The translations under genes and the position numbers were made by a program. 64,000 nt of DNA, from NCBI RefSeq assembly GCF_013122565.1, contig NZ_CP053258.1. One strand, 5' to 3'. The notes beneath the pieces are model-generated. The model did not search any database, was not told where the DNA came from, and saw only the letters and a list, made by a program, of their open reading frames with translations. Each line of letters begins with the position of its first letter. Position 1 is the stretch's first letter. Origin of the DNA: Escherichia coli (GTDB lineage: Bacteria; Pseudomonadota; Gammaproteobacteria; Enterobacterales; Enterobacteriaceae). Positions 44,543 to 50,139 of this stretch are shown piece after piece.

Positions 44543-44565
44543 CGCGCGGGCAATCTTGCCCGCGC
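44543..44565 (+). terminator. Candidate terminator hairpin after ppiA
   Basis: Perfect 10-bp stem gcgcgggcaa/ttgcccgcgc with a short loop; weak T-tract follows. Confidence 0.35.
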
Positions 44566-44638
44566 TTCTGCTCTCCCGGCGTAACCCGGATTTGCCGCTT
44601 ATACTTGTGGCAAATGGACACGTTCAGGGAGGCATCAA

Positions 44639-44806
44639 GTGAAGAAACTCACCGATAAGCAAAAGTCCCGTCTCTGGGAGCTTCAGCGTAATCGTAATTT
44701 CCAGGCCAGTCGCCGTCTTGAAGGCGTCGAGATGCCTTTAGTCACTCTTACTGCCGCAGAGGCTTTAGCGCGCCTTGAAGCGCTGAGGAGGCACTATGAG
44801 CGATAA
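44639..44806 (+). CDS. yhfG: Small protein YhfG (55 aa, GTG start), Fic-associated
   Basis: Manual translation from GTG 44639 gives [55 protein letters not shown]; stop overlaps the fic start by 11 bp; absent from the ORF track (<60 aa, non-ATG). Confidence 0.6.
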
Positions 44807-45398
44807 ATTCGGCGAAGGGCGCGATCCGTATCTTTATCCAGGCCTTGATATCATGCGTAACCGGCTGAACATCCGTCAGCAGCAGCGGCTGGAACAGGCC
44901 GCTTACGAAATGACGGCGCTGCGTGCTGCGACCATTGAGCTTGGTCCGCTGGTGCGCGGTTTACCGCATTTGCGCACTATCCATCGCCAGCTGTATCAGG
45001 ATATTTTCGACTGGGCAGGGCAACTGCGTGAAGTCGATATTTATCAGGGCGATACGCCGTTCTGCCACTTTGCTTATATCGAAAAAGAGGGCAATGCCCT
45101 GATGCAGGATCTGGAGGAAGAAGGTTATCTGGTTGGCCTGGAGAAAACGAAGTTCGTCGAGCGGCTGGCGCATTACTATTGTGAAATCAACGTGCTGCAT
45201 CCCTTCCGGGTGGGAAGTGGTCTGGCACAGCGGATCTTCTTCGAGCAACTGGCGATTCATGCCGGATATCAACTGAGCTGGCAGGGTATCGAAAAAGAGG
45301 CCTGGAATCAGGCAAATCAGAGTGGGGCAATGGGGGATCTCACCGCGTTGCAGATGATATTTAGCAAAGTGGTAAGCGAAGCCGGGGAATCTGAGTAA
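44796..45398 (+). CDS. fic: Fic-domain protein (filamentation induced by cAMP)
   Basis: ORF-track 200 aa; Fic motif present in the variant form [12 protein letters not shown]. Confidence 0.9.
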
Positions 45399-45429
45399 AA
45401 TAGCGCGGTTCTTTCGTACCGGAGCCGCC

Positions 45430-45993
45430 ATGATCCTGCTTATAGATAACTACGATTCTTTTACCTGGAACCTCTACCAGTACTTTTGTGAACTGGGGGC
45501 GGATGTGCTGGTTAAGCGCAACGATGCGTTGACGCTGGCGGATATCGACGCCCTTAAACCACAAAAAATTGTCATCTCACCTGGCCCCTGTACGCCAGAT
45601 GAAGCCGGGATCTCCCTTGACGTTATTCGCCACTATGCCGGGCGCTTGCCGATTCTTGGCGTCTGCCTCGGTCATCAGGCAATGGCGCAGGCATTTGGCG
45701 GTAAAGTTGTGCGCGCCGCAAAGGTCATGCACGGCAAAACCTCGCCGATAACACATAGCGGTGAGGGCGTATTTCGGGGGCTGGCAAATCCACTTACTGT
45801 GACACGCTATCATTCGCTGGTGGTGGAACCTGACTCATTACCTGCGTGCTTTGACGTGACGGCCTGGAGCGAAACCCGCGAGATTATGGGGATTCGCCAT
45901 CGCCAGTGGGATCTGGAAGGTGTGCAGTTCCATCCAGAAAGTATTCTTAGCGAACAAGGACATCAACTGCTGGCTAATTTCCTGCATCGCTGA
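45430..45993 (+). CDS. pabA: Aminodeoxychorismate synthase glutamine-amidotransferase subunit
   Basis: ORF-track 187 aa; class I GATase catalytic Cys (GVCLGHQ) and His. Confidence 0.92.
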
Positions 45994-49506: not shown

Positions 49507-50139
49507 TTAACGAGTGCCGTAAACGACGATGGTTTTACCGTGTGCGGAGATCAGGTTCTGATCTTCCAGCATCTTCAGAATGCGTCCCACGGTTTCACGA
49601 GAACAGCCGACAATCTGACCAATTTCCTGACGGGTAATTTTGATTTGCATACCGTCCGGGTGAGTCATAGCGTCTGGTTGTTTTGCCAGGTTCAGCAGAG
49701 TCTGTGCAATACGGCCCGTCACGTCGAGGAACGCCAGGTTGCCCACTTTCTCTGAAGTGACTTGCAGACGACGCGCCATCTGTGCAGACAGACGCATCAG
49801 AATGTCCGGATTTACCTGAATCAATTGGCGAAATTTTTTGTACGAAATTTCAGCCACTTCACAGGCGGTTTTCGCACGTACCCATGCGCTACGTTCCTGG
49901 CCCTCTTCAAACAGGCCCAGTTCGCCAATAAAATCACCCTGATTCAGATAGGAGAGGATCATTTCTTTACCCTCCTCGTCTTTGATCAGCACTGCCACAG
50001 AGCCTTTAACGATGTAGTACAGCGTTTCCGCTTTTTCACCCTGGTGAATAAGCGTGCTCTTGGATGGGTACTTATGAATGTGGCAATGAGACAAGAACCA
50101 TTCGAGAGTCGGGTCTGTTTGCGGTTTGCCAAGCACCAT
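49507..50139 (-). CDS. crp: cAMP receptor protein
   Basis: ORF-track 210 aa beginning [48 protein letters not shown]; C-terminal [14 protein letters not shown]. Confidence 0.97.

Follow-up and report, generated by a model that had tools for sequence, protein, structure and literature searches.

About 40 years ago the entire Fic family was named after the Fic protein of Escherichia coli. Its gene, fic (ecficT), and the small gene directly upstream of it, yhfG (ecficA), lie within the stretch of E. coli DNA analysed here (64,000 nucleotides of contig NZ_CP053258.1, referred to as the window) and are compared below with the Fic systems already described. The nearest of these is the K-12 pair EcFicT/EcFicA (UniProt P20605/P0ADX5), which occupies the same locus and is identical in its signature motif, in the SRRLEG motif of the small partner, in the 11-bp overlap of the two genes and in the neighbours ppiA and pabA; K-12 and the window differ by alleles only (R27 vs. 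H and T118 vs. A in Fic; A48 vs. E and R51 vs. S in YhfG), and all of these lie outside the active site and the inhibition motif. Among characterised canonical Fic proteins, the closest relative of E. coli Fic is Fic-1 of Pseudomonas bijieensis 2P24 (PDB 8WT0; E = 8e-49), likewise a class I Fic protein with a small upstream partner, AntF, and the same binding of R146 by S24 and E28. [quoted passage not shown]

More distant members of the family show how far the fold can be re-purposed. Doc, a kinase of EF-Tu, and AnkX, a phosphocholine transferase, are precedents for signature changes that redirect the chemistry while the catalytic His is kept, Doc having Lys for the second Gly and AnkX having Ala for the first; neither is a close sequence relative of E. 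coli Fic, and neither has lost the first arginine of the signature (R1) as EcFicT has. Fic proteins of class II, among them FICD/HYPE and EfFic, carry the inhibitory helix (αinh) in cis at their N-terminus, an arrangement also seen in the fusion proteins of Buttiauxella and Enterobacter described below, and FICD and EfFic use the inhibitory Glu for deAMPylation. The pair in the window is split, as in class I, and the enterobacterial fusions arose recently and share no origin with the ancient class II architecture.

The E. coli pair was characterised by Stanger, Harms, Dehio and Schirmer (PLoS One 2016; PMC5033356), who showed that EcFicA (YhfG) and EcFicT (Fic) form a tight 1:1 complex (PDB 5JFF/5JFZ) in which the S24xxxE28G29 motif, at the C-terminal end of YhfG's first helix, inserts into the Fic active site; there S24 and E28 bind R146 (R2), as VbhA does in VbhT, and E28 and R146 form a salt bridge. 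The complex is very stable, with a melting temperature of 63 °C, and E28 adds about 10 °C of stability. Fic has a normal FIC fold, with the catalytic His135 and the Gly-rich anion nest still in place, and is reported to retain the adenine pocket and N132. Neither auto- nor target-adenylylation by EcFicT was detected, even with the inhibition-relief mutant E28G, because, in the authors' explanation, R1 is replaced by Leu and a hydrophobic residue stands at the D/E position; they termed EcFicT "toxin-like", without activity. They also found close homologs confined to the Enterobacteriaceae and syntenic between ppiA and pabA, and therefore vertically inherited. Ten years on, a paper of June 2026 (PMC13327609) states that the biochemical mechanism of EcFicT "remains elusive", and an AMPylation review of January 2026 adds nothing on E. 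coli Fic; of a link to folate or para-aminobenzoic acid, only a second-hand, InterPro-derived remark was found.

All parts of the finding were published in 2016: the two genes with their overlap, the inhibition motif, the degenerate signature and the reading of Fic as a non-AMPylating, re-purposed enzyme. Their observation in the window is correct but a rediscovery which, as such, adds nothing to Stanger et al. (PMC5033356). What the founding member of the family does is a question of more weight than that finding itself. Taken as a whole, the evidence makes it highly probable that the locus is the chromosomal E. coli yhfG-fic (ecficA-ecficT) pair, a vertically inherited and diverged descendant of a class I FicTA toxin–antitoxin (TA) pair.

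The yhfG-fic Gene Pair

The elements of the locus, with positions counted from the first letter of the window, are as follows.

44639–44806, + strand: yhfG (ecficA), 55 aa, GTG start and TAA stop; FicA-type partner protein
44796–45398, + strand: fic (ecficT), 200 aa, ATG start; class I FIC-domain protein
44796–44806, + strand: yhfG/fic overlap of 11 bp, ATGAGCGATAA, from the fic start codon to the yhfG stop codon
44627–44632, + strand: Shine-Dalgarno sequence of yhfG, GGGAGG, 6 nt before the GTG; invariant in 8 genera
44785–44791, + strand: Shine-Dalgarno sequence of fic, GAGGAGG, 4 nt before the ATG and inside yhfG codons L49-R50-R51
44708–44725, + strand: codons of the YhfG inhibition motif S24-R25-R26-L27-E28-G29, an instance of [S/T]xxxE[G/N] where the αinh helix ends
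45198–45233, + strand: codons of the Fic active-site loop H135-P-F-R138-V139-G-S141-G-L143-A-Q-R146 (residues 135–146), a variant Fic signature
44958–44960, + strand: codon GGT of Gly55, the residue changed in the classical fic-1 (G55R) filamentation allele; wild-type Gly in the window

A preliminary description of this DNA had reported a GTG-initiated ORF (open reading frame) of 55 codons that overlaps the fic start by 11 bp, and had read this as the geometry of a small partner of an enzyme or toxin. The ORF listing and the sequence itself bear out the ORF and the overlap, and RefSeq annotates both coding sequences with identical coordinates and the same overlap; that YhfG is a partner protein is established by the published 1:1 co-purification and by the co-crystals 5JFF and 5JFZ of proteins 98–99% identical to those of the window. 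The 11-bp overlap is invariant in six unfused loci from six genera, and the Shine-Dalgarno sequence of fic is kept, weaker or stronger, in six genera; the arrangement is the one expected for translational coupling, which may well operate here. The inhibition motif S24-RRL-E28-G29 of YhfG did not figure in the preliminary description.

Both proteins fall squarely into known families. YhfG matches Pfam PF10832 (E = 1.3e-24, 86.3 bits against a threshold of 22.6) and, over positions 1–55 of 55, the NCBIfam equivalog NF007573 (126.6 bits, cut-off 77), while residues 58–152 of Fic match PF02661 (Fic/DOC; E = 1.3e-13, 52 bits, gathering score 24) and the whole protein, positions 1–200 of 200, matches the EcFicT equivalog NF007672 (PRK10347) with 430 bits against a cut-off of 181. 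Fic stays below the equivalogs built for adenylyltransferases, with 138.6 bits against 800 for VbhT (NF045983) and 66.2 against 230 for NmFic (NF046029). The PDB entries 5JFF/5JFZ ("EcFicT in complex with EcFicA") match Fic with E = 1e-133 and YhfG with E = 2.5e-29; Fic differs from EcFicT of 5JFZ at three residues (S2, changed by cloning, R27 vs. H and T118 vs. A), and YhfG differs from chain B of 5JFF at two (A48 vs. E and R51 vs. S) besides the start residue. That yhfG might be a chance ORF is excluded by the Pfam and NCBIfam matches, the crystal structure, a ratio of non-synonymous to synonymous substitution rates (dN/dS) below 0.2 and the invariant Shine-Dalgarno sequence.

The structural class is equally clear: the FIC fold is given by 5JFF and 5JFZ, solved for a 98–99% identical protein, the inhibitory helix of a class I Fic (FicTA) is found on a separate small protein encoded directly upstream, and YhfG has the [S/T]xxxE[G/N] motif with its Glu paired to R2 (R146) in the published crystal. 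The canonical AMP-transferase signature, HxFx(D/E)GNGRxxR, is absent. Compared with HPFx(D/E)GNGRxxR, E. coli Fic has V139 for the acidic residue, S141 for Asn and L143 for R1, whereas R2 (R146) is kept. The preliminary description, which had the acidic, Asn and Arg positions replaced, was thus right about the acidic residue, the Asn and the first Arg but not about the second Arg, which is invariant. Its further proposal, that the protein is not a standard AMP-transferase and may have another substrate or be catalytically altered, agrees both with the conservation analysis below and with the published lack of auto- or target-adenylylation even with E28G, and canonical AMPylation in spite of the variant motif is contradicted by the same negative assays (PMC5033356). 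The residue set of a Fic-type deAMPylase, in turn, is present (H135 and R146 of Fic and E28 of YhfG), with Val at the position of the usual metal ligand (E139).

Vertical Inheritance and Selection

The 1-kb yhfG-fic region is present between ppiA and pabA in 5425 of 5426 complete E. coli genomes, and the window as a whole is ordinary E. coli core chromosome, from rpnA/feo through rpsL-rpsG-fusA. The gene order tsgA-ppiA-yhfG-fic-pabA-argD-yhfK is common to Salmonella, Klebsiella, Leclercia, Citrobacter and Enterobacter sp. R1, all five with a YhfG of 55–56 aa, the 11-bp overlap and a Fic of 200 aa. Between genera, dN/dS is 0.04–0.11 for fic, 0.04–0.18 for yhfG and 0.03–0.08 for pabA, ratios that are rough since dS is saturated (often >1); dN itself is 0.085–0.147 for fic, similar to the 0.069–0.140 of pabA. 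Both yhfG and fic are under purifying selection about as strong as that on pabA.

These observations bear on whether the pair is a conventional type II TA system, in which free Fic would be a growth-inhibiting toxin and YhfG a labile antitoxin degraded under stress. The operon layout and the inhibition motif are typical of FicTA, and newer RefSeq records name yhfG "ficA: FicA/YhfG family antitoxin". A 2024 review (PMC10886550), citing Harms 2015, lists ectopic EcFicT with VbhT and YeFicT as strongly growth-inhibiting, a statement that conflicts with PMC5033356 and that, if correct, favours a conventional toxin. In PADLOC, Fic also hits four models that belong to PDC-S04, a candidate phage-defence system; the best hit, PDLC04838, has E = 4.3e-75 and spans almost the full length. 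Fic-like proteins are therefore found in a predicted defence system; YhfG has no PADLOC match. The mobile, patchy distribution of type II TA modules, however, is not what is seen, the pair being strictly vertical and occupying one chromosomal slot in E. coli and in all enteric genera examined. The published work adds that fic knock-outs are viable and wild-type-like, that E. albertii has an ecficA with a stop codon and a retained ecficT, and that relief of inhibition by E28G brings out no adenylylation (PMC5033356); the E. albertii combination should not be tolerated if Fic were a potent toxin. Furthermore, the E139A and R143A mutants of Fic-1 are non-toxic, and E. coli Fic naturally has equivalent changes. 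A conventional TA role is accordingly judged improbable, and the natural fusions described below speak against it as well.

The Variant Active Site

The motif is not peculiar to this strain. The 120 closest Fic homologs (≥79% identity) read HPFR[LIVF]G[SN]G[LMI][AV]QR, the exceptions being two single-residue variants (HPFC... and ...GCG...), and the least variable segment of the protein, residues 126–138, flanks the active site; these two observations rule out a strain-specific mutation or decay. Nor is the variant widespread among Fic proteins: in a search of 1.84 billion cluster representatives, the complete Fic representatives at ≤48% identity (counted as aligned, motif-bearing representatives of 50%-identity clusters) are, with few exceptions, essentially all HPFR[ED]GNGRxxR. 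Per-site conservation was scored over 42 thinned, unfused orthologs of 68–98% identity, among which 78 Fic positions are invariant, including H135, G140, G142, R146, N132, R138, D10-P11-Y12 and G55; within the motif loop H135, P136, F137, R138, G140, G142, Q145 and R146 never vary, position 139 is I, L, V or T and never acidic, position 141 is N, S or T, and position 143 is L, I or M, or R. The state of position 143 goes with those of two others: where it is L, I or M, position 36 is A or S and position 67 is Y (33 of 33), and where it is R, position 36 is E and position 67 is F in eight of nine. On these alignments, the variant motif is a state that is fixed, selected and specific to the clade, and positions 36 and 67 carry compensating changes. 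Since the syntenic forms that retain R1 (HPFRIGSGRAQR) already have no acidic residue, the acidic residue was lost before R1. Three apparent intermediates (P0125, P0128 and P0129) are frameshifted or error-laden sequences and were discarded. Loss of R1 is not unique to the enterobacterial clade, because an unrelated protein of 511 aa (P0248, 36% identity over the FIC domain) reads HPFRRGNGLAIR, with an independent change of R1 to Leu and Arg at the D/E position.

YhfG is constrained at the matching residues: among 73 unique homologs in register, S24, E28 and G29 are each kept in 72 and L27 in all 73. An E. coli protein of 55 aa (P0395, found in both NCBI and Logan, on a 28.7-kb contig) differs from K-12 YhfG only by E28G (SRRLGG), the change also made in the engineered inhibition-relief mutant; its label is that of a natural protein, and it could be a laboratory construct or a real variant.

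Two accounts of what Fic does are affected by this pattern. The published proposal is that YhfG is displaced and that Fic then uses a more hydrophobic phosphate co-substrate other than ATP, held in a clade-specific hydrophobic groove formed by A36, T40, Y67, F71 and V139, and transfers part of it to a target docked at the flap (PMC5033356). The groove and flap residues were described there as specific to the subgroup, and their conservation is found again here (T40 in 40 of 42 orthologs, F71 in 38 and Y83 in all 42); His135 and the anion nest are invariant, and Doc and AnkX show that Fic enzymes can switch chemistry. The proposal still lacks a ligand ten years after the structure, however, and the groove is covered by YhfG and contacts its R25, so that its conservation may reflect a protein–protein interface; such a transferase may be regarded as a serious candidate, though not as a probable one. 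The other account takes Fic as a non-catalytic protein that, with YhfG, acts as a binder or scaffold, for example by titrating a cell-division or topoisomerase partner. Activity has never been detected in published work, three positions of the catalytic motif are replaced, and a binder could also account for the gain-of-function G55R allele, whose mutation lies far from the active site and leaves the structure unchanged, its filamentation phenotype being left unexplained (PMC5033356). Against it stand the invariance of His135, the nest glycines, R146 and N132, the active-site flank as the least variable part of the protein, and the retention in 72 of 73 homologs of YhfG E28, a residue meaningful only relative to the active site, although its share of about 10 °C in the stability of the complex leaves it a possible structural role. 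A purely non-catalytic Fic thus seems unlikely.

Natural Fusions of YhfG and Fic

In several lineages, the slot between ppiA and pabA holds a single gene that matches both the YhfG and the Fic models, with no separate yhfG, a composition confirmed independently by the NCBIfam matches. At least three types are distinguished.

Type A (Buttiauxella, Dryocola, Scandinavium): 199–200 aa, YhfG residues 1–~24 joined near Fic R23
Type B (Enterobacter huaxiensis, E. hormaechei): 194 aa, YhfG residues 1–28 including SxxxE, followed by ...KGKGPAEPQIESLELGP...; motif HPFMSGNGISQR
Type C (the single protein P0306): 195 aa; motif HPFRSGNGLALR

The type A junction reads ...QASSRLD(I/V)LEPHAQDE... and its motif HPF[FL]VGSGRAQR, and the type A slot is 157 bp shorter, a difference equal to the frame offset between yhfG and fic. 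Fused genes were located in Buttiauxella sp. WJP83 (CP110080.1; L007, 2501–3103), in L006 (1011–1613) and in a locus of the Enterobacter huaxiensis type (L008, 2501–3085), and the fusion proteins comprise P0122, P0270–P0292 and P0302–P0361, P0306 among them. Types A and C have Asp instead of Glu at the inhibitory position. The junctions differ between the types, which indicates separate fusion events; in a neighbor-joining tree, which has no bootstrap support and is not relied upon for this point, an unfused, R1-retaining group is nested within type A, with long branches leading to types B and C.

Type A genes have a dN/dS of 0.069 overall and of 0.143 in the YhfG-derived part, with unsaturated dS, and are thus under purifying selection. 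AlphaFold models of two fusions are compact, with predicted local distance difference test scores (pLDDT) of 92.3 and 94.6 and predicted template-modelling scores (pTM) of 0.90 and 0.92, and fold the YhfG-derived residues into an ordered helix (residues 7–26 and 6–27); a Foldseek search with a fusion model re-found only EcFicT and other Fic structures and gives no docking position for the N-terminal helix. For an Enterobacter subgroup without DPY and R0, Stanger et al. remarked on a "distinctive N-terminal region", in a text that never names a fusion (PMC5033356), and no description of YhfG'-'Fic fusions was found in the literature searched.

At the level of gene structure, the fusions are Rosetta-stone-type evidence for YhfG and Fic working together, and they turn what was a class I Fic into an effectively class II-like protein. 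Because these cis-fusions are under purifying selection, permanent attachment of αinh would appear compatible with function. This counts against a conventional toxin, as the fusions make removal of the antitoxin impossible, and also against a transferase that depends on displacement of YhfG, as the fused lineages cannot shed the helix, although the cis helices of class II and III Fic proteins are displaceable. Being single-chain complexes, with the helix permanently attached in several lineages, the natural fusions may also be easier to assay than the pair.

Two further read-through forms come from E. coli-like Logan sequences and could be real variants or assembly errors: P0001 (252 aa, 15 member sequences) reads ...LEELRVT-MSDK..., consistent with a 1-nt deletion in the overlap and read-through of full-length YhfG into Fic, and P0005 (233 aa) joins YhfG 1–46 to Fic Y14.

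Proposed Mechanism

The following working of the pair would fit the evidence. The YhfG helix sits in the active site of a FIC-fold protein unable to use ATP as the canonical enzymes do, and translational coupling from a single promoter upstream of yhfG would set a fixed ratio of the two proteins. Fic would remain catalytic through His135, on a phosphodiester-type substrate other than ATP, a view that draws on the strong constraint on the catalytic His, the anion nest, R2 and Glu28 of YhfG. Given vertical inheritance, the stability of the complex and the fusions, the relevant species would be Fic with YhfG bound, or this complex opened in a regulated way, and not a free toxin released by degradation of its antitoxin. 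Several points weigh against this picture: the case for catalysis rests on conservation; the coupling and the yhfG promoter are putative; the filamentation caused by G55R is explained by no model; and to these are added the saturated dS and the growth inhibition listed in the 2024 review. As to the activity itself, a transferase with a new co-substrate comes first, yet short of an even chance; removal of a modification, considered next, is held only tentatively, and a growth-inhibiting toxin together with anything not listed here receives a comparably modest share, with a non-catalytic binder less likely again.

A comparison with Fic-1 suggests that the complex may have lost the writer half-reaction and kept the eraser, YhfG-Fic being an obligate heterodimeric deAMPylase, or remover of a related nucleotidyl group. 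It would use Fic His135 and YhfG Glu28 on proteins modified by others, such as AMP-GyrB and AMP-ParE, made by FicT toxins, or AMP-FtsZ, made by Fic effectors of type VI secretion systems. Fic-1 aligns to E. coli Fic without gaps over residues 1–196, with identical numbering, and it requires E139 and R143 for AMPylation and toxicity but not for deAMPylation; both residues are replaced in the E. coli clade. DeAMPylation by Fic-1–AntF requires His135 and AntF E28, and H135 and R146 of Fic, like S24 and E28 of YhfG, are essentially invariant. R1 and the acidic residue bind the β-phosphate of ATP and Mg, which are absent from an AMP-protein substrate, whereas E. coli Fic reportedly keeps its adenine pocket and N132. 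The order of losses in the HPFRIGSGRAQR intermediates, the acidic residue before R1, fits the same view, as do the great stability of the complex and the three fusion types that tether the helix in cis. An enterobacterial Fic effector, CccR, AMPylates FtsZ at Thr8 and thereby causes filamentation, so that a substrate in enterobacteria is conceivable. The coincidence of the replaced positions with the AMPylation-only residues E139 and R143 of Fic-1 was not found in the literature searched.

The difficulties are of several kinds. The 2026 paper on Fic-1/AntF does not propose an eraser role for EcFicT; deAMPylation by Fic-1–AntF depends on a divalent metal, whose usual ligand is missing in EcFicT; and the "negative patch" of Fic-1 (E29, E36 and E139) is Q29, A36 and V139 in E. 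coli. Fusions of types A and C have Asp, not Glu, at the inhibitory position, the clade-specific hydrophobic groove is left unexplained unless it merely tightens the binding of YhfG, and, since no cognate AMPylating FicT is known from E. coli K-12, a substrate common enough for the conservation of a core gene is not obvious. By analogy with Fic-1–AntF, it is conceivable, though rather unlikely, that E. coli Fic and YhfG form a dedicated, writer-dead, two-subunit de-AMPylase/de-NMPylase (remover of AMP or a related nucleotide) that protects or resets GyrB/ParE or FtsZ after modification by foreign Fic proteins. Since the E139/R143 replacements line up with the 2026 mutant map of Fic-1/AntF, the idea lends itself to a simple in vitro test. 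If it is true, the protein that founded the Fic family would shield or restore enterobacterial targets once foreign Fic toxins and effectors have acted, and the repeated cis-fusion in Buttiauxella, Dryocola, Scandinavium and Enterobacter would reflect the complex, not free Fic, as the enzyme.

Flanking Regions and Regulatory Signals

The spacers on either side of the pair hold three further elements.

44544–44565, + strand: GC-rich hairpin GCGCGGGC-AATCTT-GCCCGCGC, directly after the ppiA stop codon
44597–44613, + strand: 17-nt block GCTTATACTTGTGGCAA, holding a TATACT hexamer resembling a −10 element at 44600–44605, with no recognisable −35 element
45399–45429, + strand: fic-pabA spacer of 31 nt; pabA follows at 45430–45993

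The minimum-free-energy fold of the hairpin has a 9-bp stem and a 4-nt loop (−20 kcal/mol, z = −4.0 against shuffled sequences), and the stem is kept through compensatory changes in eight genera; a simple terminator scan does not call it, its T-tract being weak. It probably either terminates ppiA transcription or insulates the yhfG promoter region that follows. The 17-nt block is identical in seven of eight enterobacterial loci, including fused ones, and has one additional nucleotide in Salmonella, in the midst of variable intergenic DNA. It is a candidate core of the yhfG-fic promoter, and its conservation exceeds the needs of a −10 hexamer. With the sigma-70 consensus, a scan called no promoter upstream of yhfG, and sites were no more numerous than in shuffled sequences. 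The fic gene is presumably sigma-S-dependent, an assumption we take from the older literature. A site for the cyclic AMP (cAMP) receptor protein CRP in the conserved upstream block, an idea derived from the cAMP phenotype of fic-1, was rejected by eye, no scan having been run: conservation is limited to a TGTGG half-site, the other half being absent and without conservation in further genera.

Downstream, the spacing of fic and pabA is 31–33 nt in all genera examined, and the terminator scan shows no terminator-like site on the + strand between them; judging from this arrangement, pabA is probably co-transcribed with fic. Rfam detected no family at gathering score anywhere in the window. The crp gene itself lies about 4 kb downstream of fic (49507–50139, − strand; an ORF of 210 aa identified by collinearity with NZ_CP019944.1), and, although the classical phenotype of fic-1 is cAMP-induced filamentation, this proximity is probably coincidental.

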